Shown piece by piece: positions 19,322 to 45,959 of a stretch of DNA of 64,000 nt; the first letter of the stretch is position 1, and each line of letters opens with the position of its first letter. A program made the position numbers and the translations under genes. Source of the DNA: an uncultured Prevotellaceae bacterium (lineage in GTDB: Bacteria > Bacteroidota > Bacteroidia > Bacteroidales > Bacteroidaceae); assembly GCA_900316445.1 (NCBI GenBank), contig ONCZ01000002.1, positions 5,986-69,985 on the forward strand, given 5' to 3'. The notes under the pieces are model-generated. The model saw nothing but the letters and a program-made list of their open reading frames with translations, was not told the origin of the DNA and did no database searches.

Positions 19322-19323
19322 GA

Positions 19324-25431: not shown

Positions 25432-25460
25432 AATTTATTACAAATGAGGTATAGTATTTC

Positions 25461-27950
25461 TTATGACTGAAGCATCTTGATGAGGAGTACAAGGTCTGCG
25501 GCATCCACCTTATTATCACCGTTCAAGTCGGCATTCTTGAGGTTAAAGCCTTCGAAGTCTCCCTCCATGATATATTTTACAACGGCATCAATGTCTGCAG
25601 CTTCTACCTTACCATTGCCGTCAGCATCACCAGAGATAGGTGTATCTTCCGGTTCTTCTGGATCTACCGGCTCTTCCTTCAAAATAAAAGACGTTTCAGC
25701 AGGGATTAACTCCACACCCATGTTTTCCGAGTAATACCAGATAGAATAGAAATACTTACCGTCAAGGTCAAGATCCTTAACCTCGAAGTTGACTTCCATC
25801 GTTTCTCCTGGCAGAATAGTGGTCATCACGGACTTTGTTTTATCGTACGAATAACCATAGCTTCCTGTCTTAGGATCTTCCCATGTGATCTTACACAATT
25901 GCAGCTTTATGCCATTCTCATACGTATTCGAGCCTTCATTCTTAACAATGGCATTAACCTTCAGTGTCGTACCTGTCAGTACATTATTCACGAGACCAGG
26001 CGTCGTTGCCGTAGCCGACAACAATTGCGGCTTAGCCGCTTCCACCGTAACTTGTTCAGACCAGACCTCGTTCGAAGCATAATAATCAGTTGATATCTTA
26101 AGAGTCATTGTGCCCACCTGAGCAGGTGTCAAATGCAACTTGACGTTTCCGGTCTGCCCAGCCTCCACAGAACCGCAAACGACAGTTTTCTGACTTCCCA
26201 ACGAGAGGTACACCAATTCCTGATAGGAGTCGCCATTGTTCGTCAGGTTCACTGTCACTTCTACAGGCTTTCCATACTCTAACGATGTTGGGTAGAAACT
26301 GACACTATTGACAGTAATCTTTGATGTATATTCATCTGGTTCAGACTTTCTCAGTGTCAGGTTATTGCCAGATACGACGGCCTCTATAAAGGTAATCGTC
26401 GGTGACCCATAATAATCATACGGAGTCTTGCATAACTGCCACTCTGTCGATCCTTGAAGTCTGTACATCTGACGGAACTGGTATCGGCCGTCATCTAGGT
26501 CTTTACCGAAGGAGATTGTGGGACTATTTAAGACGGCATTACTATTAATAAAATCCAAGGTAACGGGTTCTGAGACACCCAACACTTGCAGCAGACTGCC
26601 ATCCTTATACAAACCCCATCCCGTCTCAAAAGTACAGCCGTCAGTCTGGTCTGTATTTTCATATTGGAAGAAAACGAGGCCTGGAAAGACTACATCCGTG
26701 AAATCCTCATTGGCCGATACACGGCTAAACTCAGAGTTCACCAGATTCCCTTTAAACTTTCCATAAAATTGAGGTATTTCAACTTCCCCAGCTGTGCCGG
26801 GTTTCAGTCCGATGATGGCATGCTGATCCATGGAATAGCCGTCAGTACTCGTACCGCCTCCAGCTCCCAATTCATCGGGATTGGCCAAAGAGAGTACAAA
26901 GTAACCATCGCTCATGCCGCCCCATCCCCAGTTCATGTGGAAGAGCCCATTGCCATCATAACCATCGACGATAAATTGGTGACCACCGCTCATACTTGAT
27001 CCGCCATAGAGCACTGGACGGTTTTCAGAAATATCCTTATAGATCATATTCTCCCATTCTGACGATGAATACATGGATCTTATTACCTGTTTCGCATTGT
27101 TGCTAAACCCAAAATAATAGGCCATATCTACAGGAGTTATACCGGCAGACGATCCACCTAAATTATAATCCATTTCGACAGCCTGACCACAATAACGGAA
27201 CAGTTCTGCGACGGCCTCTGCCGATTCGTTTGTCTCATCTCCACGATACGTCTCTTTCATCTGAGACCACTTGAAGGTTGTTGCAGGCAACGCTTTCATT
27301 GTCCATCCATACGTACTCGTTTTATAGTCAGTAATAGCCGGGCAATCATCGAGGCATTTCCAATAATAGATCACCTGAGCCATTGCGGCAGCGACACAGC
27401 CCGTGACGCAGTGATAATTTGTCTGATCAATTGTCATGAGATGGTCTGTGTCAAAGCCAGCATCCCGCCAGTCTTTTCCACTCCAGTCGGGACACATCAT
27501 ATTATATGGGTAATTCTGATTCCACTTTGTCTTAATCAGCGGATCGACAGCATTCCAACTGTCTACCCCACGGGTCTTGACCTTTTGTACAGGCTTTGCC
27601 GAGGTGCCCAATGTCCCTATTTGACGGGCATAATTGTCGAGCCACCATTTCAGGTTCTCTGGCAACTGTTCCATATCGAGAGTGCCTGTATTGGAATAGC
27701 CAAGAATCTCCGTCGTGCGGTCATCGCCAGAAACGATGACAAAGCCCTGATTGCCATCGGCATTGAACACATAGAACGGCTCTCTTTCGGAAGAACTGGC
27801 GGAGCGAGCGAAACTTCTGGCCTCGCCAAACTGCTTACCTGGCATAAACTGTTGCGCTTTCTGCAGTGCCTGCTGTTTAGAAATTTGATCTGCATTCATG
27901 GCTACCGTCACCATGAAAGCCAATAGAGTTAATAGAACTTTCTTCATCAT
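25461..27950 (-). CDS. C10 (streptopain-like) cysteine peptidase with Ig/CARDB-like domains and a C-terminal dockerin-like module
   Basis: Signal peptide. Spi-type propeptide (ISKQQALQKAQQFMP...FYVFNADGNQGFVIVSGDD). Catalytic Cys (VTGCVAAAMAQV). His/Trp motif (GGHQFIVDGYDGNGLFHMNWGWGG). C-terminus GDADGNGKVEAADIDAVVKYI...NADLNGDNKVDAADLVLLIKML. Confidence 0.85.
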   Translation of the reverse strand: MMKKVLLTLLAFMVTVAMNADQISKQQALQKAQQFMPGKQFGEARSFARSASSSEREPFYVFNADGNQGFVIVSGDDRTTEILGYSNTGTLDMEQLPENLKWWLDNYARQIGTLGTSAKPVQKVKTRGVDSWNAVDPLIKTKWNQNYPYNMMCPDWSGKDWRDAGFDTDHLMTIDQTNYHCVTGCVAAAMAQVIYYWKCLDDCPAITDYKTSTYGWTMKALPATTFKWSQMKETYRGDETNESAEAVAELFRYCGQAVEMDYNLGGSSAGITPVDMAYYFGFSNNAKQVIRSMYSSSEWENMIYKDISENRPVLYGGSSMSGGHQFIVDGYDGNGLFHMNWGWGGMSDGYFVLSLANPDELGAGGGTSTDGYSMDQHAIIGLKPGTAGEVEIPQFYGKFKGNLVNSEFSRVSANEDFTDVVFPGLVFFQYENTDQTDGCTFETGWGLYKDGSLLQVLGVSEPVTLDFINSNAVLNSPTISFGKDLDDGRYQFRQMYRLQGSTEWQLCKTPYDYYGSPTITFIEAVVSGNNLTLRKSEPDEYTSKITVNSVSFYPTSLEYGKPVEVTVNLTNNGDSYQELVYLSLGSQKTVVCGSVEAGQTGNVKLHLTPAQVGTMTLKISTDYYASNEVWSEQVTVEAAKPQLLSATATTPGLVNNVLTGTTLKVNAIVKNEGSNTYENGIKLQLCKITWEDPKTGSYGYSYDKTKSVMTTILPGETMEVNFEVKDLDLDGKYFYSIWYYSENMGVELIPAETSFILKEEPVDPEEPEDTPISGDADGNGKVEAADIDAVVKYIMEGDFEGFNLKNADLNGDNKVDAADLVLLIKMLQS

Positions 27951-27987
27951 TCTTTATTTTTTAGTTATCATTTCTTATTTTAGGCTA

Positions 27988-27995
27988 CAAAGATA
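27988..27995 (-). promoter_or_regulatory. -7 box (TATCTTTG on the minus strand) for the 829-aa protease gene
   Basis: caaagata lies 38 nt upstream of the ATG at 27950, immediately downstream of hairpin copy 2. Confidence 0.5.
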
Positions 27996-28001
27996 CAAAT
28001 A

Positions 28002-28032
28002 AATCCCGAAACGACCAAACATTTCGGGAATT
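28002..28032. terminator. Conserved CCCGAAAC hairpin, copy 2
   Basis: aatcccgaaacgaccaaacatttcgggaatt. The loop is identical to copies 4 and 6. It ends the long protease operon. Confidence 0.75.
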
Positions 28033-28058
28033 ATTTATTAATAACTAAGGTGTAATAA

Positions 28059-31000
28059 CTACATCTTCTTAATCATGTTCACAAGGGTTACGATATCTTT
28101 GGCATTAATCTTATTATCACCATTCACATCGGCATTCTTGATATTAAAGCCATTGATGTCGCCATTCATGATATAACGGACTATGGATTCAATATCCTTA
28201 TTGTCTACTTTCTCATCATTATTGGCATCACCCAACATTTCTGACTCTTTAATAACATTTGTACGGTCTGCATTCATAATCTCGCCCGACTTGTTGTCTA
28301 TCAGTAACGTCACGATGCGGATGTTCTTCTTGTCTTGAATGTTGTCTGGAAGGTCGAAGGTGTATTCGTATTCATACGTTTGCCCAGCCACGACCGATGT
28401 CGGTACGCTGCCCTCCATTCCGTTCAGATCAGGATAAATTCCACGGGCCACATCGTTGAACCTCATCTCTACAGGACTACCTTTCTTATACCATTCATTC
28501 ATATAGTCATCAGGGTTGTCTGGCATAGAAGAGTCGCTGTAGAAATTAGCTTGACTATAAGGGCCAACGTTGTCCTCTACTACAACGTATGCAATACGGA
28601 AATCGGTATGCCCTTCATCCGTGAATCCAAAAGTAGTTGAAGTCTTCACCGTCACCGAAGTATTGTCCTCTGGTACAAAGACGACATTAGATTGAATTAT
28701 AGCGTCGGCATGGTCCTTTTGTTCCTCGTATGCTTTGGCTGCTTCATCAAGAGTGGAATCAATTGTTTTAAGCCGGTTGATGAGGAAAGTTGGAGTGGAT
28801 GAGTATTCTGTTATGTACTTACCATAATTGTAAGGTTCTCCCACAGCGTCAGCTGCTCCATAACAACTATTCTCATGTATTTCAATTGGAATGAAGTTGT
28901 TGGGATATTTCTCATGCATTTTTTCGGTAGCGACATAACCACGTGGAGACCATCCACACCATGTGCCAACAAAATCTTCCAAGACCATCTTGCGAGGATA
29001 ATGATTAGCAGAACTGGTAAATTCATAGACTAAGTGGCTGTTGGCTGGTATGGCATCTTCTATTCCATTCACACTGACCACATCTAATGTGAGTGTATGA
29101 TGGTAGCCTTCCAACTCTGTGGGGACATCAATTTCTAAAGTCTCTGCCAAACATGAGGCCAAGCAGGTCTCGATGGTCTTTGTTCCATTCACCTTGCCAT
29201 CGAAGTCCCATTTTATGGCATAAGATGTAAGAAGATCAGCACATCTGTTGACAACAGATACCTGAATCTTGTTTGTAGAATCTTCATTTACCATTTTCGG
29301 CTGACATAATCTCAAATCCTTTGGTAGGTTCTCACCTTCAATGATAAAACGAAGGGTCAATGGATGACCTGTTTCTTCATTGTAGCGATTCTCCCAAGTC
29401 TTATCCCCACCCATAATTCTGCACCATTGACCATCGTAATCATGGGGTTCAAATGAGGATATACCAAAATCATGCACATAATACCTTCCAATTCCAACAT
29501 AAAGCTCATCGCCAGTTATTATGTATGGTTCGGATAAAATTATGCTCTTCCACCCTGTTGTCCGAGAAACAGTTACTGATTGCTTTACCAGATAGTCTGT
29601 ACCAGGTTTGGTGATAAACACGTAGTCAGGAAAGTTTGAGTTGAGCATATTTATACAGAAGAACTCAATGCCAGTAATTTTTTGATCTTTATACTTGCCA
29701 ATCATCTCGGCAGGTACATGAATGGCAAGATCCACATCACATCTCTCGAGTGATCCTATTTCTGGCGAATTATAGTGTCCCGTATTATTATCATTAACAT
29801 ATCCCCATTTTACTGCCTTGTTTTCTACAACCAGGTCATCAGACAGGTTCCAGCTCTTCCATCCAGATTTTTGGTAATCAGGCATGGCTCCCTTTGGAAT
29901 ATGAAGTGTCACGTTTTCTTTTACCGAGAAATTATCCTCCCCATAAAATGGAGGCTGAGATGGCGGATATATCGACATGAAATACACATCTGTCAAAGCT
30001 GGCAGATAATCCTCAAACGGGCAGCCTTGAAACAGCAATTGATTAATGGTGTTAAACTTTATTGTTTTTAGTTTGTCACACAAGAATATCCTGTTTTTAT
30101 CAGGGTAATCAGTAGTACCTTCACGAAATTCTATGGTCTTCAATTTCGGACAATTCCATATACGAGGACCTTGAATCATAGAAATGGACAGCGATGTCAG
30201 CTCCTGACAATTCTCAAAAGTTGTAAGGTCGGCATCATAGACCTTATAATCTTTAGAATTATGTGAAATCACATCAGGAATTACTATGTCTCCTGAATAA
30301 TGACCTGATTGAGGTGTAATCACTGTTGCGTAATGTTTCTCATCTAAATCCTGCCATAAATCAAAAGCGATACCATCTTTAATCAAGTATCCATGATTAT
30401 CTCTTTCAAAAGACTTTGAAGTACCATCATAAATAAGCTTCATCAGATTATTGGATATTCGTATTTCAGTATAATAATCTGGCCGCAATCCACTTCCATA
30501 TAAATTCGCAACATCAGCAGACCATTCTTCTGAATCACTGCCCCTACATACTGGCAATAGGCAATAATCACCATCAGCAATTTTGTCATCTATGACAATA
30601 GAAGCAAAATAACCATAGCTTTCAGATTCGTCAGATCCAATTTCATGCTGTTCTTGGGCATAGACTGTAACAAAACCTTTTTCGTTAAAGAGACCCCAGC
30701 CCAACTGAAGTTTTTCCTTCTCACCAGTTGTGCTATATACATTCGCGAACATATTAAATTTTGGAAACGTCCCATCATCCCGTCGCCAAAAATACTTTTT
30801 TTCGCCATTATAAACTACGGAATAAACTTGTGCCTTAGGCTTAACAATCCCAGATGTTCCTTCAGGTGACTGAATTCCTATGACTGCATCTTGATAATCA
30901 TTGAAAGAATTGCCTGTGACGTTGAGACCTGTGAGCATGAAGAATCCATTGCTTTGACCATCCCATCCCCAATTCACATGATAGCGCCCAGAGTCATATC

Positions 31001-31922
31001 CGTCAATGACAAAAGCATGTCCTCCATAACCTGTCATAGATTCTCCGAAGCCAGAGTATATCACAGGTCGGCCTCCTGCCATCTCAGCATACATCAGGTT
31101 ATCCCACTCTTCGTCTGTATATTCTTCCTTAACGACAAATTGCGCACCATCTGGATATCCAAAGATATTCTTTAGCAACTCTGGTATGATTGAAGTATCT
31201 GCGGCAGACTCATCTACACCATAATTCATCTGAACTGCTTGTCCACAATAGAGCATCAGATTGCCAAGGAATTGCAGGCTCTCAGTTCCCCAGCCGAATT
31301 TGATGGGCTCCAACTGAGGCATGTATATCTGATTAGACCATGTGGTATATGCGGGGACTGTAGACGTGTAATCCTTAGGCCAACGGTTATAATTCAGAAC
31401 CTGAGCCATAGCAGTTGCCACACAGCCGGTCACAGAGCGTTGCCCATTATAAATAGGACATTTGGTATTATATGGGAAATCCTGTCCCCATTCTGTTGCC
31501 ATCAGTGTCTCTACTTTTGCACGTCCTTCTGCTCCACGGGTTCTGGCAGGGCGGATATAGTTCTTGTCGTTGGCAATAGCAGTGAGGACCTTCTCGTAAT
31601 AGTTAAGAAGTTCTTTTACATTGTCAGGAACGCTGTCAACATTCAGGCTACCACGGTCTGAATAGCCGAGGATGGGCTCTGTACGGTCATCACCTGAGAC
31701 AATCACAAAGCCCTTCTTGCCTTCAGCATTGAAGACATAAAAGGCTTCATATTCCGCAGGGCTGTCAGCTTTCTCACCTCTGGCAAAGGCTTTCACTTCC
31801 CCGAACTGTTTCCCCGGCATAAACTGCCGGGCCTTCTGCAAGGCTTCCTGCTTGGATACTCTCTCAGCATTCACAACCACCGTCACCATGACGGCCAAAA
31901 GTGTTAACAGCAACTTCTTCAT
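28059..31922 (-). CDS. Giant C10 cysteine peptidase with BspA-type LRR, thioredoxin-like (degenerate CxxC) domain and dockerin-like module
   Basis: VTGCVATAMAQV and GGHAFVIDGYDSGRYHVNWGWDG. LRR_5-like segment (NCQELTSLSI..NCPKLKTIEF). TWCGWSPRG. C-terminus GDANNDEKVDNKDIESIVRYI...NADVNGDNKINAKDIVTLVNMI. Confidence 0.85.
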   Translation of the reverse strand: MKKLLLTLLAVMVTVVVNAERVSKQEALQKARQFMPGKQFGEVKAFARGEKADSPAEYEAFYVFNAEGKKGFVIVSGDDRTEPILGYSDRGSLNVDSVPDNVKELLNYYEKVLTAIANDKNYIRPARTRGAEGRAKVETLMATEWGQDFPYNTKCPIYNGQRSVTGCVATAMAQVLNYNRWPKDYTSTVPAYTTWSNQIYMPQLEPIKFGWGTESLQFLGNLMLYCGQAVQMNYGVDESAADTSIIPELLKNIFGYPDGAQFVVKEEYTDEEWDNLMYAEMAGGRPVIYSGFGESMTGYGGHAFVIDGYDSGRYHVNWGWDGQSNGFFMLTGLNVTGNSFNDYQDAVIGIQSPEGTSGIVKPKAQVYSVVYNGEKKYFWRRDDGTFPKFNMFANVYSTTGEKEKLQLGWGLFNEKGFVTVYAQEQHEIGSDESESYGYFASIVIDDKIADGDYCLLPVCRGSDSEEWSADVANLYGSGLRPDYYTEIRISNNLMKLIYDGTSKSFERDNHGYLIKDGIAFDLWQDLDEKHYATVITPQSGHYSGDIVIPDVISHNSKDYKVYDADLTTFENCQELTSLSISMIQGPRIWNCPKLKTIEFREGTTDYPDKNRIFLCDKLKTIKFNTINQLLFQGCPFEDYLPALTDVYFMSIYPPSQPPFYGEDNFSVKENVTLHIPKGAMPDYQKSGWKSWNLSDDLVVENKAVKWGYVNDNNTGHYNSPEIGSLERCDVDLAIHVPAEMIGKYKDQKITGIEFFCINMLNSNFPDYVFITKPGTDYLVKQSVTVSRTTGWKSIILSEPYIITGDELYVGIGRYYVHDFGISSFEPHDYDGQWCRIMGGDKTWENRYNEETGHPLTLRFIIEGENLPKDLRLCQPKMVNEDSTNKIQVSVVNRCADLLTSYAIKWDFDGKVNGTKTIETCLASCLAETLEIDVPTELEGYHHTLTLDVVSVNGIEDAIPANSHLVYEFTSSANHYPRKMVLEDFVGTWCGWSPRGYVATEKMHEKYPNNFIPIEIHENSCYGAADAVGEPYNYGKYITEYSSTPTFLINRLKTIDSTLDEAAKAYEEQKDHADAIIQSNVVFVPEDNTSVTVKTSTTFGFTDEGHTDFRIAYVVVEDNVGPYSQANFYSDSSMPDNPDDYMNEWYKKGSPVEMRFNDVARGIYPDLNGMEGSVPTSVVAGQTYEYEYTFDLPDNIQDKKNIRIVTLLIDNKSGEIMNADRTNVIKESEMLGDANNDEKVDNKDIESIVRYIMNGDINGFNIKNADVNGDNKINAKDIVTLVNMIKKM

Positions 31923-31961
31923 ACTTATTTTGCTTTTAGATTATTCTATCTTGTCATTCCT

Positions 31962-34900
31962 TTATTTGATCTTGTTTATGAGCACAATATCAACGATATT
32001 CACTTTCTTGTCACCATTCACATCGGCATTCTTGAAGTTGAAGCCATTGGCATTGCCTTCTATGATATATTGTGAGATAGCATCAATGTCTTTGGAGTCC
32101 ACCACCCCATCGCAATTGGCATCACCAGGAATGTCAGTTTCCTGTACGACTTTCGCCTGGCCGGCATTAATAATCCGACCCGTGTTCTTGTCTAACAACA
32201 GTGCGACAGCAGAGAGCTTTGTCTTGTCCTGGATATGGCTGTTGTCCGTGATGTCAGCCCTCAAGGTATAGGGATTCGCCTGGCCAGCCTTGACACTGGT
32301 CGGGATGGTTCCTTCGATGCCTTTATATGGGCTCCAAGCAGCCACTGGCACGTAGTCATATTTCAAGCCTTCAATCTTGCTGGGCATATTGCACCATTTG
32401 TCAAACATAGGATCTTCTGGATATGGATTATTATCTGCAAAGCCATTGACCTGAGCCCATGCAGAGCCTGTCCCGCTTAAACCATCCTCTAACAAGACAA
32501 AGCCCAACTGGAATGGCAGATTGTCGGCATCCATTTCAAACTGGGTATCAGCACTAATGTCAATCTTGTTATGATCCTCATCTGCCCAAACAGCACGTAC
32601 GTTGACAGAACCTGGCACAACCATATTCAAGGCATACTGTACATCCCTATCAATTCCAAAGCGATCTGACATCCAGTATGTTAAATACTCACGTTTCGAA
32701 CCAATGTAAACATCTACCGCTTTCTTACGATTAACATATGTAACAGAAGAATTAGTGAGTGTCAAAATTTCATGATAATCATCAATTTCCATGATATCCA
32801 GATGGTGAATGACTATCGGAATAATCTTATCTCCATACATCTCACATAGTTTCTCTCTGACGGATATCCCCATAGGGCTATAATTGTATACCACTCCTGT
32901 TTTCTCCTCAAAGACGACATTCGTCTCTGGTTTTTTAGTCAAAGTAAACAAAGTACCTGTATCCGAGATATCTTTCTGGGCAGTATTGGCTACGCCATTG
33001 ACTTTCGTGATGGTGATGGTCTTCTCGTCATAACCTTGAACAGGGTCGGAATCTAACTCAAGGGTAACAGCCCTTTTGTTAAATGCCGGAATAGAGAGAG
33101 TAGCTTCTTTTTCGTATGAACCACTTTTTTTACCTGATACCTTATAGCTGATACTATTGACATTATTACCACCGTCATTAACGAGCACAAGTTCGGCTTG
33201 AGCCTTTCCATTCAAAATTGCAGAAGCGTGATTAAACCCAAGGACTCTGACGGCATTCTGATTGTAATTGCCACCACCAAACAACACATAAACCCTCAAA
33301 TTACCCCATTGGGGAACCAAATTCTCCCAATTGGACTGAAATGAAGGTCTTACCCAGAAAGCGCCTTCGCGATTCAACTCAGATCTTACACACTGCAAAG
33401 GATAACCCGCATTCATACCGCCCTCTGTGATATCAAAGGAATAGCCTACATAGAGACCTTCTTCAGGTATCACATGAGAATGTTTGAATGCTACTTGATG
33501 GTCTCGGAACATCTCTGTAGCCAACTGGCTATTGGGAACATCCAAAATCTCTACATCAGCATCCATTTCAGACTTAGGCAAATGAGTAGATACCCATAAG
33601 GTAACATTTTGCATCGCAAGAGTATTCCTGTAGATGTTGATACCATCAATAGTCGTACCTTGTCCACCCACCAAGTTGAAGGGGATATAAACGGCTACAT
33701 GATATCGTATGCCAACCCGTTCCTTACCAATGATATTAGTATTTTCACCCTCGCTATTATACATTTCCACTTCATCATGATTGCTCCACCACATCTGTCC
33801 TTCCTTCAGCTCCACATTATTGACAATCTGTACACCATCATCAATGGGTGTATCCGATGAAGCGAAAGGAATAGCTCCAGAGCTGTTGGCAGCCAGGGCG
33901 TCATCCTTACCATTAACTTTTGTAACCTGATAGATCAACTTATGGTACCTGTCAGAGAAGGTAGCTTCAAAGTTGAAACCTGCTTCCATCGAATGTCCTG
34001 GGCGCAAATCTGCCTCCAGCATTTTACTTCCTTGGTGACTGCCGTCAACATCCCATTCTAAGACAAACGATTTTACAATTTCCTGCGAATGGTTTTGCAC
34101 GGTCATCTTCACATCATAATGGTCTTCTTTCACATCAGATTTCTCCACTTGGATATCCATTACTGCCACATCGAGTGCCATATTATCACCACTGATGACA
34201 AACTTCAAAGGGATGGGATGCTCAAAATCTATAGTCTGATCCGGCATATACTTCCATGTTCCGGGCTCCATACCCTGACTATGATCATCACCCATCGTCC
34301 TGTACCAAAAACCGTCAGGAGCACTCACTTCGATATTTGACATATAAGTAGATATCAAACCATGACGGCCTACACCCACATACAGCTCGTCACCCGTGAT
34401 GGTATATGGCTCTGACAGTTCTATATCCATCCAGGCATTCTCCAAGATCTCAGCGTTCTGCTTCACGATATAGTCAGTACCCGGTTTGGTGATAAAGACA
34501 TAATCGCAAGCCTCTGTCGGCTGATAGAATAGTATATGGCTGATGGACTTTCCTATGTATGGAACCAGTACCTCAGCGGGAACATGAATGGCATACTCAC
34601 CATCGTTGTCACCACACTCGTCATAAACGGAATAAGGAGACACCTCATCACCATTGCAATAGCCCCACTCTATACCGTTAACCTCTGGCACGGGCTGGTC
34701 ATCCACGATATTCCACCCCTTCCAGCCTGCCGTTTCATAGTCAGCCTTGGCACCCTTGGGCACATGGATGGTGGTATTTGGATTCACAACAAACTCTCCG
34801 TCTTTCCAAGTAAAGACTGGTGGTTCTGGGGATGCGAAATAGACATCCGTCAAGGCAGGCAGAGACTCGGTATCCCAGTGAGGGTAGGAATAGAGAGTAA

Positions 34901-36788
34901 ACTGCCGTGGATTCTTGAAACGGATGGTCTTGAGCTTGGAACACCATTCTATACCATGATCTATCGTTGATAAAGATTTTGGGAACTCGATACTTTCAAG
35001 AAGATTACAACCAGAGATCTGTTTCAACGTGCATACGCCCTCACGCAGTTCTAACATTGAAAGTTTGGGGAAACCGCTCATATATGAGAAATAAGTGGTA
35101 GACAACGAAAGGGATGTCAGGTCTGGGAAATCGGAAAAGAGATTTTCGTCAAATTTACTGACATAATAATCCTTGGACTTGTATGATATCTGGCTGGGGA
35201 TATTTAATGTTCCCTTAGGTTTGCTGTCACCAAAGCTGATGATGGAGGCCCGGCCTCTGTCGTACTGATTGTAGACTGAATACGTGATGCCATCGACTGT
35301 CATCACTCCCACATCATCAATAGAACGTTCTTCCCAACTCAGCATAAAGGTACGTAAACGCATCCACTGCCCATCAATCTTAATCTCCAGATAATAGTCT
35401 GACGAGTTGGCTGCTGCCAACCAGTTGGCTGATTCATCTGTCCGGCAAATGGGCACAACACGATAGGTTCCGTCAGAGATGGTAGAGGGTATTGCAAATG
35501 TAGCATCCATACGGTATTCCTCGCCAACAGGGAAGGTATGACTCTCTTCATATAGCACTTGTTGCAATCCGTCACTGTCATAAAGACCATATCCAATTTG
35601 TATGGACATGCTTTCAGACAAGTCGCTGACAAGTGCTGACGACAAATTGATGTTGGTAAATGAGCCACTGGCATTACGAGGCACAATACGGCTGCCACCA
35701 TAATTGACTTCCTTGACCACAGCCTTAGGCCTGTCCACCACATTGCCAGTAGGAGGTTGGATGCTGATTGTTGCAGATTGATCTGAAGTAAAATCACTGC
35801 CACCTGGATTAAGATTCGTCAGCGCAAAGAAGCCATCTTCACTACCACTCCAGCCCCAATTGAAATGAAAACGACCATTTCCATCATAGCCGTCACAAAC
35901 AAACTCATGGCCTCCAGCACTGCCCTGTCCGTCATAGATAATGGGACGACCTTCTGCCAGTTCATTGTACAACAGTAATTCCCAGTCATCATCTTGATAA
36001 CTACTGCGTTCCACACGGTGAGTGGTCTGGCTATAGCCAAACACATTGATCAACGCAGGAGCAATCAGAAAGGAGTTAGCACCAGACTCACCAACGCCAT
36101 ATTCCATCCGGACAGATTGTCCACAATAGAGCATGAGCCGCGAAATGTCTGCATTGGTCATATTATCCCAAGCAAACTCTGTCGGTTCAAGTTGAGGCAT
36201 TTCTATGCCTATAGACTGTGGCGTGTAGGCATCCACACTATTCGTTGGTCCCTGAGGCCAACGGTTGTAGTAAATCACCTGGGCCATGGCCGTCGCCACA
36301 CAACCTGTAACACAACGGTGTCCATTATACACAGGACAGAGATCATTATAGGGAGTACCCTGATCCCATGTCGTCGTGATCAATGGATTAATAGCCGACA
36401 TGGAAGACCTGTCCAAAGAACGTGTCTTTATCTTATTGGGCTGTTCATTTAAAGAGTTGGCCACCTTCTTATAATAGCCCAATAGCCATTTCACGTTGCA
36501 GGGAGCCGTCTGCTGGTCCAGGGATCCATGATCAGAATAGCCAAGGATATCAGGCATGCGGTCATCACCGCTGATGATCACAAAACCACCCTTGTTCTCT
36601 ACATTGAAGATATAGAACGGTTCAACTTCAGCTATTCCTCCAGAACGGGCAAAGGCTTTTGTTTCCCCAAACTGCTTGTCAGGCATAAACTGCCGGGCCT
36701 TCTGCAAGGCTTCCTGTTTGGATACTCTCTCAGCATTCACAACCACCGTCACCATGACGGCCAAAAGTGTTAACAGCAACTTCTTCAT
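31962..36788 (-). CDS. Giant C10 cysteine peptidase with LRR, Ig-like domains and dockerin-like module (1608 aa)
   Basis: VTGCVATAMAQV and AGGHEFVCDGYDGNGRFHFNWGWSG. C-terminus GDANCDGVVDSKDIDAISQYI...NADVNGDKKVNIVDIVLINKI. Confidence 0.85.
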   Translation of the reverse strand: MKKLLLTLLAVMVTVVVNAERVSKQEALQKARQFMPDKQFGETKAFARSGGIAEVEPFYIFNVENKGGFVIISGDDRMPDILGYSDHGSLDQQTAPCNVKWLLGYYKKVANSLNEQPNKIKTRSLDRSSMSAINPLITTTWDQGTPYNDLCPVYNGHRCVTGCVATAMAQVIYYNRWPQGPTNSVDAYTPQSIGIEMPQLEPTEFAWDNMTNADISRLMLYCGQSVRMEYGVGESGANSFLIAPALINVFGYSQTTHRVERSSYQDDDWELLLYNELAEGRPIIYDGQGSAGGHEFVCDGYDGNGRFHFNWGWSGSEDGFFALTNLNPGGSDFTSDQSATISIQPPTGNVVDRPKAVVKEVNYGGSRIVPRNASGSFTNINLSSALVSDLSESMSIQIGYGLYDSDGLQQVLYEESHTFPVGEEYRMDATFAIPSTISDGTYRVVPICRTDESANWLAAANSSDYYLEIKIDGQWMRLRTFMLSWEERSIDDVGVMTVDGITYSVYNQYDRGRASIISFGDSKPKGTLNIPSQISYKSKDYYVSKFDENLFSDFPDLTSLSLSTTYFSYMSGFPKLSMLELREGVCTLKQISGCNLLESIEFPKSLSTIDHGIEWCSKLKTIRFKNPRQFTLYSYPHWDTESLPALTDVYFASPEPPVFTWKDGEFVVNPNTTIHVPKGAKADYETAGWKGWNIVDDQPVPEVNGIEWGYCNGDEVSPYSVYDECGDNDGEYAIHVPAEVLVPYIGKSISHILFYQPTEACDYVFITKPGTDYIVKQNAEILENAWMDIELSEPYTITGDELYVGVGRHGLISTYMSNIEVSAPDGFWYRTMGDDHSQGMEPGTWKYMPDQTIDFEHPIPLKFVISGDNMALDVAVMDIQVEKSDVKEDHYDVKMTVQNHSQEIVKSFVLEWDVDGSHQGSKMLEADLRPGHSMEAGFNFEATFSDRYHKLIYQVTKVNGKDDALAANSSGAIPFASSDTPIDDGVQIVNNVELKEGQMWWSNHDEVEMYNSEGENTNIIGKERVGIRYHVAVYIPFNLVGGQGTTIDGINIYRNTLAMQNVTLWVSTHLPKSEMDADVEILDVPNSQLATEMFRDHQVAFKHSHVIPEEGLYVGYSFDITEGGMNAGYPLQCVRSELNREGAFWVRPSFQSNWENLVPQWGNLRVYVLFGGGNYNQNAVRVLGFNHASAILNGKAQAELVLVNDGGNNVNSISYKVSGKKSGSYEKEATLSIPAFNKRAVTLELDSDPVQGYDEKTITITKVNGVANTAQKDISDTGTLFTLTKKPETNVVFEEKTGVVYNYSPMGISVREKLCEMYGDKIIPIVIHHLDIMEIDDYHEILTLTNSSVTYVNRKKAVDVYIGSKREYLTYWMSDRFGIDRDVQYALNMVVPGSVNVRAVWADEDHNKIDISADTQFEMDADNLPFQLGFVLLEDGLSGTGSAWAQVNGFADNNPYPEDPMFDKWCNMPSKIEGLKYDYVPVAAWSPYKGIEGTIPTSVKAGQANPYTLRADITDNSHIQDKTKLSAVALLLDKNTGRIINAGQAKVVQETDIPGDANCDGVVDSKDIDAISQYIIEGNANGFNFKNADVNGDKKVNIVDIVLINKIK

Positions 36789-36828
36789 ACTTTTTATGCT
36801 TTTTAGTTATTTCTTTTTTGTCATTCCC

Positions 36829-39800
36829 TTATTTGATCTGGTTCAAAATTTTTACAATGTCTATCACATTCACTTTCCGGTCATTATTCGTTTCGGCATT
36901 CCACCAATTGAAACTTTCGGGTTCCTCGGCAGTCATAATGAAATCAGTAACAGCATCAACGTCTTTTTGATCAATGACCTTATTACAATCAGCATCTCCG
37001 CTCAATAGTTCACCCACGTCAACAATCTTGGCATTCTTAAGATCGAAACTATTACAATTAATAACAGGTTTCCCTGTCGTCTTACCTTCCAGATCCTCTT
37101 CTATGAAAGCAATAATATGCATATTATCTGTATTCCATTCTTGATTAAGACGCATATAATAACTCATTTTATAATGATTACCATGCCATATGATGGGATC
37201 TCCCCATAAATCTGAAGCGGTATCTTGTAAAACACCCTTATGTTTATAATCGGCAATCCAAGTATTATTCATTTCATCATACTGGGGAGCCACAAGATTG
37301 TCTTCCGTAAGATATACACTTAGTTTTGATGTAGCATGCAGAATATCAAATTCACTATTCTTATCTCCTTCTACGATTATTTTCAGTAACCGTTTATTTT
37401 TATCGTACTCCACATCAATATTCACATCAGCAAATGACGGCATTTCACGAAGCTTAGCAAAATAATATGAATCTGCCCCAAAATGTCTATTGGCATCTAA
37501 CACCAAACCGATAATACCACACTCATATTTCTTGAAAAACTCTTCACTGGCATTTGATGTCAGTTCATCCCGACAATGATAGGCAACAAGAGCCAAATCA
37601 TCATTTTCTTCTAACAACACATCCTGACGATTATTAGTATTGAGCGCATCGTGACACCATGTTGATGTAATATTCTCGACGAGTATCTTCTGTCTGGTCA
37701 TGCCCTCCTTATATACTCTAAAAGTATATGTGCCAAAGTCATCGTTGGGGAAAAGAGGCTTCTCACCACAGATCTCGTCAACATAGATTTTCACTTTGTG
37801 AAGTCCAACTGAGAGATTGTCAGGAAGATTAAAAGAATATATCTTATATGCTGCAGACGTTTGATCCAATTCCAGACCATAATAGTCTCCGCCTATAATA
37901 TCTTTCCCATCAATTTCTCCCTTGATGTGGAAATCATTACCTATCAACTTTTTACCCCAATTTTTCAGGAACAATGCAAACTGTAATTGCGCATGACTAT
38001 CATATTTATAATAATAAGGGTCAGGATCATTGAGTACCATGGATGTGACATGGATATCATATAAAGGAAGATGATCCCCCTCCAAGATACATTGCATGGC
38101 CAGGCAATTGTCATCTTCTTCAAGCCATTCGTATTCGTTGTTCTCTCCGTATGGTCCATATAAGCAAGCACTCCCTGGCTCCGCTGCACGAGAGCCACTA
38201 CTATTTGTGCCTCCCAAAATATAACTTATCGGATAAATATATCCTTCAGAGTTGTATTCAATACCCATAAAGATACTATCTCCTGTTATTACATACGGTT
38301 TTTCCAAAGACAACACATTCCAACCTAACTTCACATCTCCTATGGCCTGTTTGTAAATGTCCTTCTTGTCGCGAGATGATCCAATCCAGAAATAGACATC
38401 CGAAATATTCTTATCTATCAGGGCAAAGCGGAAATGTTTGATTGAAGCACCGACAAAAGACTGTATTGACTCTTTTGAGAAACTGATGAATGCCTTATAT
38501 GTACCAGCAGCCTGGCCTCCATAACCAAACAATTCGCTATATTCATCAGAACGATAATAACCAAAAAGCATCTGGCTTTCATCAATGTTTTCGAAAGGGT
38601 TGTCGCTGATTATCACATCTGGCATGTCTATTTCTTCGATGCTCTTGAAGTTCTCCCATCCTGCAGAGTTTTTATATATTCTGGCACGACCCTTCGGAAC
38701 ATATAAGGTTGCCTTCTGATAGGTTTCTTCTGAGAAAATATTCGCATTGATAGGAAGATATCCCTTACGGACCACAATCGATTCCAATTGAGTGCAATTG
38801 TAAAAAGCATAATCTCCGATGCTCATCAAAGATTGGGGGATTTCCAAGGATTTCAATTTCTCACAATTTACAAAAGAACTCTTTCCGATTTCTTTGAGAT
38901 TGGGTGGCAACTTGAGATTCTCAAGTCCTGTTCCATCAAATGCTCCTTCTTGAATGATTGTTATATGATCAATATGATGTATTTCCTTCAAGGAAGAACA
39001 ACATGAAAATGCTTGAATAGGAAATCCCGGTAATTTTGAATTCCAATGAATGACTTCAAGGTATTTTGCCCCCATAAAAGCACCCCAAGCCATACTCTCT
39101 ACACTTTCAGGAAGCGTGTATTCTTTCTGAGTCAATCCTCCAGCATACCCCATAAGATGATCCTTATTTGTTGTCAGCAATGCCCCATTCTCAACACAAA
39201 AATCCGTATTGCCTTCCTCAACAATCAATTCTGTTAAGTTATCACACATAGAGATGCAGTATTCCATGGTCCACATTCCATTCAAGGTGTTAAGTTTCAG
39301 TGACTTGGGAATGGTCAGAGTCTTTATCTGAGAACAACCCTCAAAGGCTCCTAAGAACCAATACTTCATGGAAGAAGGCATCTTTATTGATGTCACATTT
39401 TTACAATAGCTAAAGCCGTGGGCTGCAATTGCTGTTACTTTATACAGTTTTCCTTCTATTTCGACCGCTTCTGGTATAACAATGTCTCCTTCTATTTCCT
39501 GATTGGCTGCACTTACTTCTACTTCGTCCGTAGTATAAGGATTAAACTTCAGCCTCTCATCATGCGCAGCATCGGGCATCACTTTCTGTATCAGACTGTT
39601 GCCGCTAATGACAGCCTGAACATACCGCCAGTCTGAGCCTTCATCTGCTACCCAATCTGCAGTCTCACTCTCACGATAGATAGGAACAATGCGATAAACG
39701 CCTTCAGCCAAACCACTGCCGAATGAGAAGATGGCATTAAAGGTGATATTGAATCCAGGGGTGATGTCTATATTACCATATCCCAGCACTTTTTTCAACT

Positions 39801-41037
39801 CCGTACCCCGATAGAGTGCAAAGCCAATCTGGGCTGTCCCCTCCTCCATGAAAGCATGCTGAAGAATGGTCTTGATGGTGATGTCCGTGAAATCGGCAGA
39901 GGCAGATGCTCTTGTGACCGTCTCATTCGAAAGGAGTTCCAACTTTGTCACAGTCACCAAAGAATTACTGACGGCAGCATCACCCGTTGGCTTCTGGATG
40001 CCAATGATGGCAGTCTGGTCCTGACCGTAAGAACCTGTGCCGTCAGGATTGAGTGCCGTCAAAGTGAAGTAGCCATCAAACAAGCCGTCCCAGCCCCAGT
40101 TGATGTAGAACATACCATCCTGGTAGCCATGACAGATAAAGGAGTGACCACTGGTTATCGACTTTCCACCATAGATGACTGGACGCCCAGCCTTCAGTTC
40201 ATTGTAGATCATCGTCTCCCAGTTCTCAATGTTATAGCCATTGCGATAGACAATGCGCAGGCCTTTGTCATAGCCGAACTTTCCAATCATGGCTCCTGGG
40301 ATACGGGCATCGTAAGCACCAGAATTATCAAGGCCATAGTCCATGCCTACCGACTGGCCACAATAGCGCATCAGGCTGGCGATTTCATCATCAGTCATGC
40401 TGTCCCAGTTGAAGGTCGTGGCCGACAGTTTGGGCACCTGGAGGTTCAGGGTCTCTGTGGTATATGAAGCAATCTCACCTGTCGGGCCCTCTGGCCATCT
40501 GGTATAGTTCATGACCTGTGCCATCGCCGTAGCAATACAACCTGTCAGGCAGTTTTTGCCATGATAGGTCGGACACTGGTTGTTATAGGGAGAATCCTGT
40601 CCCCAAGTAGTGGTGATGAAAGGAGCAATGGCCTCCTTGACTCCTGACGTTCCACGAGTTGCTGACCTTTTGGCTCGTACTGCTGTATCGGATTTGCCAA
40701 GGTTTTCGAGTGCCTTTGTATACTCTCCAAGCCACCAGCGGACATTTTCAGGCATTCTGCCAAGATCAAAGCTACCGTGTTCTGCATAACCCAAGATGGA
40801 CTTCATACGGTTATCACCACCAACAATTACAAAGCCTCCATTATTCTCAGCATTGAAGATATAGAAAGGTTCATTGTTGTCTGGACGCTCTGATCGGGAG
40901 AAAGCCTTTGTCTCCTTGAACAGCTTGCCTGGCATAAACTGCCGGGCCTTCTGCAAGGCTTCCTGCCAGGATACTCTCTCAGCATTCACGGCCACCGTCA
41001 CCATGACGGCCAAAAATATTAATAGCAACTTCTTCAT
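36829..41037 (-). CDS. Giant C10 cysteine peptidase with BspA-type LRR and dockerin-like module (1402 aa)
   Basis: LTGCIATAMAQV and SGHSFICHGYQDGMFYINWGWDG. About 8 LRR_5-type repeats (AFEGCSQIKTLTIPKSL..., SFVNCEKLKSLEIPQSL...). C-terminus GDADCNKVIDQKDVDAVTDFI...NAETNNDRKVNVIDIVKILNQI. Confidence 0.85.
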   Translation of the reverse strand: MKKLLLIFLAVMVTVAVNAERVSWQEALQKARQFMPGKLFKETKAFSRSERPDNNEPFYIFNAENNGGFVIVGGDNRMKSILGYAEHGSFDLGRMPENVRWWLGEYTKALENLGKSDTAVRAKRSATRGTSGVKEAIAPFITTTWGQDSPYNNQCPTYHGKNCLTGCIATAMAQVMNYTRWPEGPTGEIASYTTETLNLQVPKLSATTFNWDSMTDDEIASLMRYCGQSVGMDYGLDNSGAYDARIPGAMIGKFGYDKGLRIVYRNGYNIENWETMIYNELKAGRPVIYGGKSITSGHSFICHGYQDGMFYINWGWDGLFDGYFTLTALNPDGTGSYGQDQTAIIGIQKPTGDAAVSNSLVTVTKLELLSNETVTRASASADFTDITIKTILQHAFMEEGTAQIGFALYRGTELKKVLGYGNIDITPGFNITFNAIFSFGSGLAEGVYRIVPIYRESETADWVADEGSDWRYVQAVISGNSLIQKVMPDAAHDERLKFNPYTTDEVEVSAANQEIEGDIVIPEAVEIEGKLYKVTAIAAHGFSYCKNVTSIKMPSSMKYWFLGAFEGCSQIKTLTIPKSLKLNTLNGMWTMEYCISMCDNLTELIVEEGNTDFCVENGALLTTNKDHLMGYAGGLTQKEYTLPESVESMAWGAFMGAKYLEVIHWNSKLPGFPIQAFSCCSSLKEIHHIDHITIIQEGAFDGTGLENLKLPPNLKEIGKSSFVNCEKLKSLEIPQSLMSIGDYAFYNCTQLESIVVRKGYLPINANIFSEETYQKATLYVPKGRARIYKNSAGWENFKSIEEIDMPDVIISDNPFENIDESQMLFGYYRSDEYSELFGYGGQAAGTYKAFISFSKESIQSFVGASIKHFRFALIDKNISDVYFWIGSSRDKKDIYKQAIGDVKLGWNVLSLEKPYVITGDSIFMGIEYNSEGYIYPISYILGGTNSSGSRAAEPGSACLYGPYGENNEYEWLEEDDNCLAMQCILEGDHLPLYDIHVTSMVLNDPDPYYYKYDSHAQLQFALFLKNWGKKLIGNDFHIKGEIDGKDIIGGDYYGLELDQTSAAYKIYSFNLPDNLSVGLHKVKIYVDEICGEKPLFPNDDFGTYTFRVYKEGMTRQKILVENITSTWCHDALNTNNRQDVLLEENDDLALVAYHCRDELTSNASEEFFKKYECGIIGLVLDANRHFGADSYYFAKLREMPSFADVNIDVEYDKNKRLLKIIVEGDKNSEFDILHATSKLSVYLTEDNLVAPQYDEMNNTWIADYKHKGVLQDTASDLWGDPIIWHGNHYKMSYYMRLNQEWNTDNMHIIAFIEEDLEGKTTGKPVINCNSFDLKNAKIVDVGELLSGDADCNKVIDQKDVDAVTDFIMTAEEPESFNWWNAETNNDRKVNVIDIVKILNQIK

Positions 41038-41070
41038 ATTTATTTTGCTTTAGGTATTTCTTGTCACATC

Positions 41071-42165
41071 CTATTCAATCATGTTCACGATGAGTACAAT
41101 GTCGGTGGCATTGACTTTTTGATCACCGTTCATGTCGGCAGCATCCTTGTTGAAGTCCTCCGTTGGGTTCACGATATAGTTTGCCACCGCATGCGCATCA
41201 TTGATGTCTACCTTTCCATCACCATTCACGTCGCCTTTATTCAGACAAATGCGAGAGATACCCTTGAGTGTAGACCCCTCATAATAATAGAAATAGATGA
41301 TGCCTGAAAAAACTTCCTCAGGAGCCGTAAAGTTCAGCGTTTTACCGACAATCTCCACTGTACCTTTCGATGCGTATGCCGAAGTCAAAGAATAGTCCTC
41401 AGGAAGTCCTGTTTCCAGTGACACCGTTTTTCCTGCCTCTACCCTATAGTACTTGGGCGGTATGGCATAAGTAGTTATGGTTTTTTCTCCGTTAGTAAGT
41501 GTCACCTCTGTCGTTTCTGTGAGCCTTGTTCCCAGAATAGCCGTATGACTATCTCCGTCTATCTGAGCTGCCTCACTGACAGAACCACATTTTATGCTGG
41601 TGGCAGCCGACATGTTTGTATAACCCCGATAGCTGATCATTGGCTGACCACTACCATCAATATTCGCATAGAACTGGTATATGTCAAAGTAGGGCGCATC
41701 CTTCTCCATCTGCGAGCCCATTCCATAGAATGTGATATCACACAGACCAGGTGTATAGAAATAAGAGAAGTCGCTGATGTAGTTGTTGCTGACATCCAAC
41801 TTCAGGCTTTCGGACTGTATAAATGCCAGGATATTGATGTTCTCCAAATGGTTGTTGCTCAGGTTGAGCTCACGCAGTGATTCCAACGGCACCAATGGCG
41901 ACACATCGCTGATATCGTTATAACTGAGGTCGAGCTTGGATACTGCTGTCAGGTTAGCGACATCACGGATATCCGTAATCTCCAGTCCTGACAGGTTCAG
42001 CGTAGTGATGGTATCTGTTTGGGTCTGCAGCACATCGTCTGATTCACCAAGACCAATATGATGCCGTACACCATTTTCAAACTCAGGCGAATAAAAAGTC
42101 ACCTTCTGGGCCTGCGCCACCAATGCAGTCATCATGAGGACTGCTATACTTGCTATCTTTTTCAT
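41071..42165 (-). CDS. Internalin-type LRR protein with a C-terminal dockerin-like module
   Basis: Signal peptide. 22-aa LRRs ([28 protein letters not shown]). C-terminus [21 protein letters not shown]...[23 protein letters not shown]. Confidence 0.8.
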
Positions 42166-45100: not shown

Positions 45101-45857
45101 CGTTTTCTATGTTCGTCACGCTGTTAGGGATCGTGATGGATGTCAGACTTTTGCAGCCAGAGAAAGCTCCGTGTCCGATGCTCGTTACGGTTTTGGGAAT
45201 GGAGATAGTGGTCAGGCTGCTGCAGTTATTGAAAGCATCGTATCCTATGCTCGTCACGCTGTTGGGAATCGTGACGGAGACCAGGTTCGTGCAATCACAA
45301 AAAATTCTATTACTTATGCTTGTCATGCTATTGGGAATCGTGATGGAGGTCAGACCGCAGCCTTCGAAAGCACCGTGACCTATGCTCGTCACGCTGTTAG
45401 GAATCGTAATGGAGGTCAGTCTGCTACATCTATAGAAAGCACCGCTACCTATGCTCGTCACGCTGTTAGGAATCGTGACGGAAGTCAGGCCCCTGCAACC
45501 AGCAAAAGCATAGTCTCCTATGCTTGTCACGCTGTTAGGAATCGTAACGGAGGTAAGGCTCCAGCAGCCATCAAAAGCAAATTTTCCTATGCTCGTCACG
45601 CTATTGGGAATCGTAACGGAGGTAAGGTCCCAACATCTTTGGAAAGCATATTCTCCTATGCTCGTCACACTATAGTTGACGCCCTCATAAGTAAAGTACG
45701 GAGGGATATCTACATGGCCGGAGTAATAGTTTTGATTACTTACCACTTCAGCTTCCCTGTTTTCGCTTATGTTGTACATAACGCCATCAATCTCAACCGC
45801 TGCATTTGCCGCCAACGGTAAGATGATGAGGAGAAATAGTAATAATAGTTTTCTCAT
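42162..45857 (-). CDS. BspA-type LRR surface protein (17 x 23-aa repeats) with a large uncharacterised C-terminal region
   Basis: Signal peptide [19 protein letters not shown] when started at the ATG at 45857. Repeats of [14 protein letters not shown].xAFxGC. No dockerin and no CTD recognised. Its stop overlaps the next gene's start (ATGA at 42162-42165). Confidence 0.8.
44500..45675. repeat. Coding tandem repeat, about 69-nt period x17 (LRR units)
   Basis: Recurrent gctcgtcacgctgtt(g/a)ggaatcgt(g/a)a(c/t)ggaggtcag blocks on the plus strand. Confidence 0.85.
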
Positions 45858-45891
45858 TGTTATTGTTGTCTTCTTGTTAATGATTTGTCTG

Positions 45892-45899
45892 CAAAGATA
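45892..45899 (-). promoter_or_regulatory. -7 box (TATCTTTG on the minus strand) heading the LRR/C10 operon
   Basis: caaagata lies 35 nt upstream of the ATG at 45857, just downstream of hairpin copy 3. Confidence 0.5.
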
Positions 45900-45905
45900 C
45901 AACAA

Positions 45906-45936
45906 ATTCCCGAAACGAGCAAGCGTTTCGGGAATT
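45906..45936. terminator. Conserved CCCGAAAC hairpin, copy 3
   Basis: aattcccgaaacg-agcaag-cgtttcgggaatt. Confidence 0.75.
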
Positions 45937-45959
45937 ATTTATAAATAAGGTGTAAGTTG

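Follow-up and report, generated by a model that had tools for sequence, protein, structure and literature searches.

Dockerin-bearing C10 proteases and a cohesin protein with a type IX secretion-type tail in the same genomic stretch of a rumen Prevotella

The 64,000-nucleotide (nt) stretch analysed here in its entirety, and referred to below as the window, derives from an uncultured Prevotellaceae bacterium (assembly GCA_900316445.1, contig ONCZ01000002.1, positions 5,986 to 69,985 of the forward strand), and the source of the genes in question is a rumen organism, Prevotella. The window contains a co-oriented tandem array of four genes for cysteine proteases of family C10, labelled P1-P4 in coordinate order (Table 1), each of which carries a dockerin at its C-terminus, together with a separate gene for a protein interpreted as a cohesin ending in a short C-terminal domain (CTD) of the kind that the type IX system of protein secretion (T9SS) recognises. 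The ends of the four protease open reading frames (ORFs) coincided exactly with those given in an original prediction made from the sequence of the array.

Table 1. Coordinates of the protease genes, the cohesin gene and associated features in the window.
Feature	Position (nt)	Strand	Product	Domain order or remarks
P1	25461..27950	minus	829 aa (828 in a gene call that begins at the second Met)	signal peptide, I69, C10, beta-sandwich, CARDB/Ig-like repeats, dockerin aa 775-829 (nt 25464-25628)
P2	28059..31922	minus	1287 aa	signal peptide, I69, C10, beta-sandwich 364-499, degenerate leucine-rich repeats (LRR) 508-697, jelly-roll 703-880, Ig-like 885-985, thioredoxin/Omp28/HBP35-like 992-1224, dockerin 1232-1287
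P3	31962..36788	minus	1608 aa	P2 plan plus P3-specific insert ~979-1211, diverged thioredoxin-like module, dockerin 1556-1608
P4	36829..41037	minus	1402 aa	signal peptide, I69, C10, beta-sandwich, BspA-type LRR_5, Omp28 ~1203-1316, degenerate dockerin 1348-1402
Cohesin protein	53304..54806	minus	500 aa	signal peptide; cohesin aa 23-161 (nt 54324-54740); beta-domain repeats ~165-295 and ~300-435; short T9SS-type CTD aa 455-500 (nt 53307-53444)
Internalin-like LRR protein (LRR-dockerin)	41071..42165	minus	364 aa	C-terminal dockerin aa 310-364; 33 nt upstream of P4, same orientation
Secreted dockerin protein	54939..56207	minus	422 aa	C-terminal dockerin aa 361-417; directly upstream of the cohesin gene
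Protein with dockerin-like EF-hand pair	50145..51131	minus	328 aa	pair at aa 25-89, directly after the signal peptide
BspA-type LRR_5 surface protein	42162..45905	minus	1231 aa from ATG at 45857	without dockerin and without CTD
Conserved gene-start stretches	27807-27970, 31782-31945, 36648-36811, 40897-41060	minus		from nucleotide comparison
Hairpin (TCCCGAAA..TTTCGGGA) then TTTG..TAnnTTTG promoter-like motif	27980..28044	minus		between P2 and P1
Copy of hairpin and promoter-like element	45884..45948	minus		85% identical to the 27980..28044 copy; upstream of the BspA gene
All intergenic element copies	25380-25444, 27980-28044, 45884-45948, 53206-53237, 54857-54888, 58264-58295	minus		

The prediction that these were four tandem proteases of papain fold, with catalytic Cys and His intact and preceded by Spi-type propeptides, was borne out. 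A Pfam scan located Peptidase_C10 (PF01640) in each protein at approximately aa 141-350 (E = 4e-54 to 2.8e-58; 174.6-197.8 bits against a cut-off of 26), and the Inhibitor_I69 propeptide at approximately aa 19-110 (E = 9e-22 to 3.5e-29), the motifs originally quoted (propeptide, Cys context and His/Trp block) being present in all four and invariant in a four-way alignment. Comparison of P3 with PDB chains by phmmer matched SpeB (1e-44) and interpain A (6e-42), and a profile prepared from the four N-termini matched the same two enzymes at 5.5e-66 and 2e-60 respectively. The catalytic Cys, situated in TGC(V/I)A(A/T)AMAQ, corresponds to Cys185 (P1), Cys167 (P2), Cys163 (P3) and Cys167 (P4), and in the alignment occupies the column of the SpeB and interpain A nucleophile, a column that reads Ser in the 1dki zymogen, the inactive C47S mutant of SpeB. 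The Ala present at the same position in 3bb7, likewise an inactive mutant, is that of C154A of interpain A (PMC2642729). The catalytic His, situated in GH.F (His324, His302, His294 and His298 in P1 to P4), aligned with the SpeB His; Cys, His and NWGW were identical in the four proteases, and at least 90% kept across 62 homologues. The residue equivalent to papain Gln19, at position -6 from the Cys, was Gln in P2 only, and the proposal that the missing Gln made pseudo-proteases of the array was rejected because the active enzyme interpain A is also without Gln there.

Neither a Cys nor a lipobox was present in the N-termini of P1-P4 (MKKLLLTLLAVMVTV.VNA/ERVS), which indicates that they carry signal peptides for signal peptidase I (SPase-I) rather than lipoprotein signals. 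On these features P1-P4 are predicted to be secreted, latent C10 zymogens with intact active sites, and proteolytic activity is predicted for them.

Beyond the protease domain, a beta-sandwich reaching approximately aa 500 was common to all four proteins, after which their architectures diverged. The original prediction of LRR_5 repeats held strongly for P4, in which three stretches matched PF13306 (E = 2e-40, best at aa 693-817), and did not hold for P1, which is without LRR; P2 and P3 gave no Pfam match to this family, and their repeats are degenerate, being recognisable in P3 from a BLAST match to the neighbouring BspA gene (E = 8e-6) and in P2 from a solenoid with strands every ~24 residues at aa 575-697. 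The latter was evident in an AlphaFold2 (AF2) model of P2 aa 340-1287, generated from a 62-sequence alignment with a predicted local distance difference test score (pLDDT) of 86.9, which also resolved the beta-sandwich, jelly-roll, Ig-like domain, alpha/beta module at 992-1224 and two dockerin helices. Most Foldseek matches of this model were to glycoside hydrolase family 2 enzymes and were discarded as generic beta-sandwich arrays with root mean square deviations above 20 Å. P3 was 42% identical to P2 over residues 1-978; that the insert which then follows is a copy of the preceding jelly-roll/Ig unit was unsupported (best BLASTP E values of 0.08-0.5).

A thioredoxin/Omp28-like module had also been predicted, and was corroborated both by Pfam (Omp28, PF11551, cut-off 34.9), with 61 bits for P4 (E = 1.3e-16) and 46.9 bits for P2 when scanned as a segment, and by superposition of the P2 model on HBP35 of P. 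gingivalis, a thioredoxin-like T9SS cargo protein (5y1a; Foldseek E = 1.5e-9, TMt 0.54), the one match retained as specific; a second, weaker Foldseek match, to 2axo, was not interpreted. The equivalent region of P3 was matched only via P2 (BLAST, 30% identity over ~400 aa). Across the family the thioredoxin motif takes the form W-C-G-W-[C/S/T]. The supposed degeneration of its CxxC, considered here in comparison with HBP35, is correct for P2, where it is reduced to CxxS (TWCGWS from residue 987), and for P3, which has no such motif; P4 however keeps the first Cys (TWCHDA, one Cys), and since CxxS/T is a common variant in the family the change is not a one-off decay. HBP35, by way of further difference, carries its own CTD. 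The C-terminal end (positions 318-375 of 377) of the NCBIfam model NF045500, 'Omp28-related selenoprotein', matched the dockerins of the proteins at 41071-42165 and 54939-56207, from which it follows that a stand-alone Omp28-plus-dockerin family exists, with a selenocysteine form of the thioredoxin motif; the tails of the proteases resemble such an Omp28-plus-dockerin unit.

Seven dockerin-bearing proteins were identified in the window. Dockerin_1 (PF00404) was matched by P1-P3 at 35-44 bits (cut-off 22.9) and by the three further proteins listed in Table 1, while the P4 dockerin, for which Pfam gave no match, was 39-43% identical to other dockerins by BLAST. In the alignment both 12-residue Ca loops keep D/N at positions 1, 3, 5, 9 and 12, save that loop 2 of P4 begins with E in place of D. 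In the protein at 50145-51131 the EF-hand pair is N-terminal rather than C-terminal, and the remainder is without a family match.

A cohesin partner in the same window was absent from the original prediction, the gene concerned lying outside the coordinates which that prediction covered. The ORF at 53304-54806 was first spotted by eye from its cohesin-like N-terminus and CTD-like C-terminus, and its identification as a cohesin derives from annotated homologues and from structure rather than from family models. Precomputed Pfam Cohesin (PF00963) assignments were present in 6/120 homologues, those being at 42-48% identity. An AF2 model (pLDDT 88.9; 107 sequences) matched about 20 cohesin structures in a Foldseek search of the PDB with a probability of 1.0, TMt values of 0.55-0.77 and ~140 aligned columns; 2jh2, 1g1k, 6kgf and 5nrm were the top matches (TMt 0.62-0.77), and all specific matches were cohesins.

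When a profile of the whole protein was compared with PDB chains, the tail alone was matched. This tail (ATGISR...WYNLRGQR...KGLYIKNGKKVVVK) fits the motifs of the 48 'short' CTDs of 40-55 aa that Ye et al. 2025 (PMC11969387) described from P. intermedia, namely the T/GI cleavage motif, motif B (Y..G plus a basic residue), motif D (GxY or GxN, then I; here GxY-I) and motif E (K/R), and the AF2 model likewise ends in only a few beta-strands and not in a sandwich of seven. In P. intermedia these CTDs have been shown experimentally to be cleaved and glycosylated as long CTDs are (PMC11969387). The best PDB matches of a tail profile were two unannotated chains whose C-termini share the tail of the window protein, 4kca (an arabinanase from a rumen metagenome) and 7jvi, and the next (E = 0.05-0.2) included the gingipain CTDs of 7pq4, 5hfs, 5ag8 and 5ag9 and the PorSS CTD of 8glj, all aligned at or near the C-termini of those chains; the tail of one homologue of the cohesin protein matched Por_Secre_tail (PF18962) at E = 0.12. 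From the fit of its motifs, the 53304-54806 product is read as a cohesin protein that would be exported and surface-attached by the T9SS. The short CTD thus sits on the cohesin protein and not on the proteases: a hidden Markov model (HMM) of the tail, scanned against nine window proteins including P1-P4, matched the cohesin protein only, and none of the seven dockerin proteins of the window has a CTD.

The relation between these modules became apparent from homologues and from related loci in other genomes (denoted by L numbers and taken with 10-kb flanks). The original prediction had placed a dockerin in the position normally occupied by the CTD, and precisely this exchange was seen among the 120 best homologues of P3, of which 30 ended in a dockerin, at least 58 in a short CTD and none in both, the remaining 32 being mostly CTD variants outside the regular expression used; the switch point lay directly after the thioredoxin-like module. 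Homologues of the cohesin protein displayed the converse arrangement, with a CTD in 120/120 and a dockerin in 0/120. Four Prevotella species (those of the window, L018, L019 and L021) share a dockerin gene followed by a cohesin gene, within the order CNNM, PpiD, TPR-SpoIIE, dockerin gene, cohesin gene, PqqD/radical S-adenosylmethionine (rSAM). L008 has a gene for a 208-aa cohesin-plus-CTD protein immediately after a C10-LRR-dockerin gene, and in L009 two cohesin-plus-CTD genes lie beside four dockerin genes, and a 1952-aa protein (14972-20830) has a C-terminal cohesin and dockerin. In L025 (10001-14371 and 14372-16972) a single C10 protease (P0042) combines dockerin, cohesin and short CTD, its neighbour being a cohesin-LRR-CTD protein. 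A profile restricted to the cohesin, searched against 1.84 billion representative sequences, matched 5,026 proteins at E ≤ 1e-3, of which 1,825 also reached E ≤ 1e-10; among the best 144 matches, 126 contained two or more cohesins (up to 10 by HMM, with 13 matched stretches in the search output), 97 had a short or long CTD-like end, and 73 contained a dockerin as well. Shuffling of these modules is free in this lineage.

The alternation of dockerin and CTD at one position, together with the genetic linkage across species between dockerin genes and a cohesin bearing a CTD, leads us to favour, as rather likely, the reading that P1-P4 dock by means of their dockerins onto cohesins anchored through the T9SS. 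According to this scheme the signal peptide would carry each protease into the periplasm by the Sec/SPase-I route, the I69 propeptide would hold it latent, the Cys-His dyad would perform catalysis, and the long C-terminal extension would supply binding, its LRR, Ig and thioredoxin-like modules presumably targeting substrates. The original suggestion that proteolysis is thereby directed at surface proteins of the host or of competitors is a conjecture only; the source is a rumen organism. The 53304-54806 protein would be exported by the T9SS via its short CTD and attached at the cell surface, where P1-P4, the LRR-dockerin protein and the two further dockerin proteins would bind such cohesins in a non-covalent, Ca2+-dependent manner, the expected outcome being a display of proteases and adhesins on the surface of cells or vesicles analogous to a cellulosome.

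A number of results weigh against docking. The product of 53304-54806 was unmatched by Pfam Cohesin even at E ≤ 10, by Por_Secre_tail in Pfam at E ≤ 10 and by the NCBIfam T9SS models (TIGR04183) at E ≤ 0.1, and a profile of its cohesin region reached E values of no better than 0.2-0.35 with PDB cohesins. Positions 10 and 11 vary among the seven window dockerins, so that one cohesin may not bind all of them and several may be involved; the cohesin gene is located 12 kb away from the protease array and not within it; and no route is known by which proteins with a dockerin alone would traverse the outer membrane and meet a cohesin at the surface. The simplest idea for their export, admittedly speculative, is pairing in the periplasm followed by co-export: in rumen Prevotella, and in Bacteroidota at large, dockerin-only cargo would associate there with cohesin-CTD carriers and hitch-hike through the T9SS translocon to the cell or vesicle surface as a non-covalent 'proteolytic/adhesive cellulosome', a proposal advanced very tentatively and which we regard as doubtful. 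The distance of 12 kb also counts in favour of a different explanation, namely that the dockerin-like modules are mere Ca2+-binding EF-hand pairs, the cohesin is unrelated, and the proteases are periplasmic or vesicle-lumen cargo or are freely released; EF-hand families do match the window dockerins weakly, and certain rumen bacteria, R. albus for one, are known to possess dockerins but no cohesins. The conservation of the dockerin-cohesin gene pair in four species, the adjacency of cohesin genes to C10-dockerin genes in L008 and L009, the mutual exclusion of dockerin and CTD at one position and the existence of proteins that join cohesin, dockerin and CTD nevertheless render this improbable.

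If the dockerins do bind cohesins, these could conceivably belong to different rumen species (Ruminococcus scaffoldins, for instance), so that the proteases would be planted on foreign cellulosomes or surfaces. Rumen metagenomes have prompted the proposal that dockerins were transferred laterally between Firmicutes and Bacteroidetes (PMC6487960), cross-species dockerin use has been speculated upon for R. albus, and the PDB dockerins matched were clostridial; but the Prevotella lineage possesses a large family of cohesins of its own, with T9SS tails, and Prevotella genomes show synteny of cohesin and dockerin genes, which makes a foreign target most improbable. It is likewise highly unlikely that P1-P4 are mainly adhesins of the BspA/LRR type whose protease serves for self-processing only or is inactive despite its Cys and His. 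Binding modules do make up most of their length, two purely LRR genes precede the array, and Gln at -6 is confined to P2; yet interpain A is active without that residue, Cys, His and NWGW are invariant in the array, and retention of the propeptide makes sense only for a latent enzyme.

Co-export of dockerin proteins through the T9SS would, if true, constitute the first piggy-back route for that system and give a diderm an analogue of the cellulosome. Docking of P1-P4 onto T9SS-anchored cohesins would extend the cohesin-dockerin principle to the Gram-negative surface, and would explain the deployment of dozens of Bacteroidota dockerin proteins long regarded as orphans in metagenome surveys. It raises for the T9SS field the question of how proteins without a CTD exit, and would offer a naturally occurring plug and socket with which to display proteins on the surface of Bacteroidota. 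As in the Firmicutes systems (cellulosomes, the R. bromii amylosome and the GH84/toxin complexes of C. perfringens), a type-I dockerin with two Ca loops is found together with a cohesin beta-sandwich, and many dockerin proteins occur per few cohesin proteins, related Bacteroidota proteins including multi-cohesin, scaffoldin-like examples. By contrast with those systems, the bacterium here is Gram-negative, a T9SS CTD takes the place of the surface-layer homology domain or sortase motif as the proposed anchor, and the cargo in the window consists not of carbohydrate-active enzymes but of proteases and LRR adhesins, and must cross the outer membrane, unlike that of Firmicutes. Rumen surveys (PMC6487960 among them) have counted cohesin and dockerin matches in Bacteroidetes, and one of 2016 (PMC6487960) pictured in passing a rumen Prevotella protein labelled 'peptidase C10-DOC'. 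No paper was found on a Prevotella cohesin partner or tying cohesin-dockerin pairs to the T9SS, although the literature coverage was incomplete and this is absence of evidence only. What would be new is the combination of cohesin-dockerin display with a T9SS anchor and a cargo of proteases or adhesins.

The protease array itself is ordinary, and adds new members of a C10 type already known in rumen Prevotella. Prevotella is dominant in the rumen, where much of the proteolysis stems from it, C10 being among its most expanded secreted peptidase families, with up to 17 genes per genome (PMC9045265). P1-P4 share with SpeB and with interpain A of P. intermedia an I69/Spi-type propeptide, a papain-like C10 core, Cys/His and NWGW; interpain A also has a long C-terminal extension, of 465 aa in a protein of 868 aa (PMC2642729), ending in a secretion domain, whereas the extensions of P1-P4 reach ~1250 aa, comprise LRR, jelly-roll, Ig and thioredoxin-like modules and end in a dockerin. 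The C10 proteases Btp and Bfp of Bacteroides thetaiotaomicron and Bacteroides fragilis are likewise encoded by clustered paralogous genes (btpB, btpC, btpZ), but are lipoproteins of ~48-52 kDa co-transcribed with genes for staphostatin-like inhibitors, neither a lipobox Cys nor adjacent inhibitor genes of that kind being found for P1-P4, which are 829-1608 aa in length. The original contention that known enzymes are much smaller was therefore correct with respect to Btp and Bfp, and not with respect to interpain A or to the homologues of the C10 proteases, which numbered more than 5,300 matches, those listed being mostly of 1000-2200 aa. The gingipains resemble the window proteins in combining a cysteine protease with adhesin domains at the surface, but belong to family C25 rather than C10 and carry their own CTD.

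P1-P4 were 46-56% identical over the first ~380 aa of the four-way alignment and 36-42% over longer stretches, and because of these low values the duplications are judged to be old rather than recent. At the nucleotide level, the first ~164 nt of the protease genes, inclusive of ~20 nt before the start codon, were 83-91% identical among P2, P3 and P4; the maximum of 91% was that of P2 and P3. Overall the proteins are only ~40% identical. Gene starts so alike suggest local gene conversion, or else that the signal peptide and the beginning of the propeptide are under strong constraint.

A scan of genome contigs with full-length P3 recorded no relatives, while a scan with the four-paralogue alignment recorded 10 related loci, all of them (10/10) in rumen, sheep-abomasum or other uncultured Prevotella, Prevotellaceae or Bacteroidaceae metagenome-assembled genomes. 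The exact P3 sequence was present on 13 metagenome contigs, with the four-gene array intact wherever the contig was long enough. Between strains, P3 and the LRR-dockerin protein were identical, P4 was 99.7%, P1 91% and P2 88% identical, and the repeat number of BspA varied (1231 versus 1047 aa); in L021, from another species, a single C10-dockerin gene occupies the syntenic position.

On one side the array is flanked by a capsule locus at 12.4-24.7 kb, which includes a divergent NusG/UpxY-like gene, and on the other by the LRR-dockerin gene, the BspA-type LRR gene, DUF6078 and a VapE-like primase gene. The G+C content was 0.37-0.48 across the 12-46 kb that comprise the capsule locus and the LRR/protease array and mostly 0.50-0.55 in the flanks, with 50-56 kb also being low at 0.44-0.45. 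Since the VapE-like primase and DUF6078 genes at its right edge recur at the same position in L018, another species, the low-G+C stretch is judged not to be a recent insertion.

The BspA gene contains thirteen 69-nt (23-aa) tandem repeats at 44451-45713; its stop and the start of the LRR-dockerin gene have 4 nt in common. The gaps from BspA through LRR-dockerin, P4 and P3 to P2 ranged from -4 to 40 nt (33-40 nt, plus the one 4-nt overlap), and the 33-108-nt gaps of the protease array contained no ORF of 100 aa or more. An intergenic element, consisting of an inverted repeat TCCCGAAAC(N)GTTTCGGGA plus a Bacteroidetes-type TAnnTTTG promoter-like box, recurs in the window and has the appearance of a terminator-plus-promoter cassette. 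The TTTG..TAnnTTTG pattern was found 12 times against 1.4 expected, whereas a sigma-70 promoter scan performed no better than chance (60 found versus 46±7 in shuffles). The presence of a hairpin plus this pattern upstream of BspA, and again before P1, suggests that BspA, LRR-dockerin, P4, P3 and P2 form one transcription unit, of which BspA is likely the first gene, and that P1 has its own promoter.

Near the cohesin gene, an rSAM (SPASM-like) gene plus an 84-aa ORF at 51327-52929 (plus strand) is convergent with a 42-aa ORF (MKKKYFAPEMEEVKVDEVVVLDNVVEPSKEKIADECDDDGEA) at 53011-53139 (minus strand), the latter having its own promoter-like element and the 84-aa ORF occupying the PqqD position of related loci. 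An rSAM/PqqD pair plus an ORF of 41-50 aa adjoins the cohesin gene in L018, L019 and L021 too, and the group is possibly a cluster for a ribosomally synthesised and post-translationally modified peptide. On the other side of the dockerin-cohesin pair, a TPR-SpoIIE (PP2C phosphatase) gene always precedes it (56234-58294 in the window, and in L018, L019 and L021), with a STAS-domain gene in between in L019 and L021, and TPR-SpoIIE/STAS may be a partner-switching regulator of the pair.

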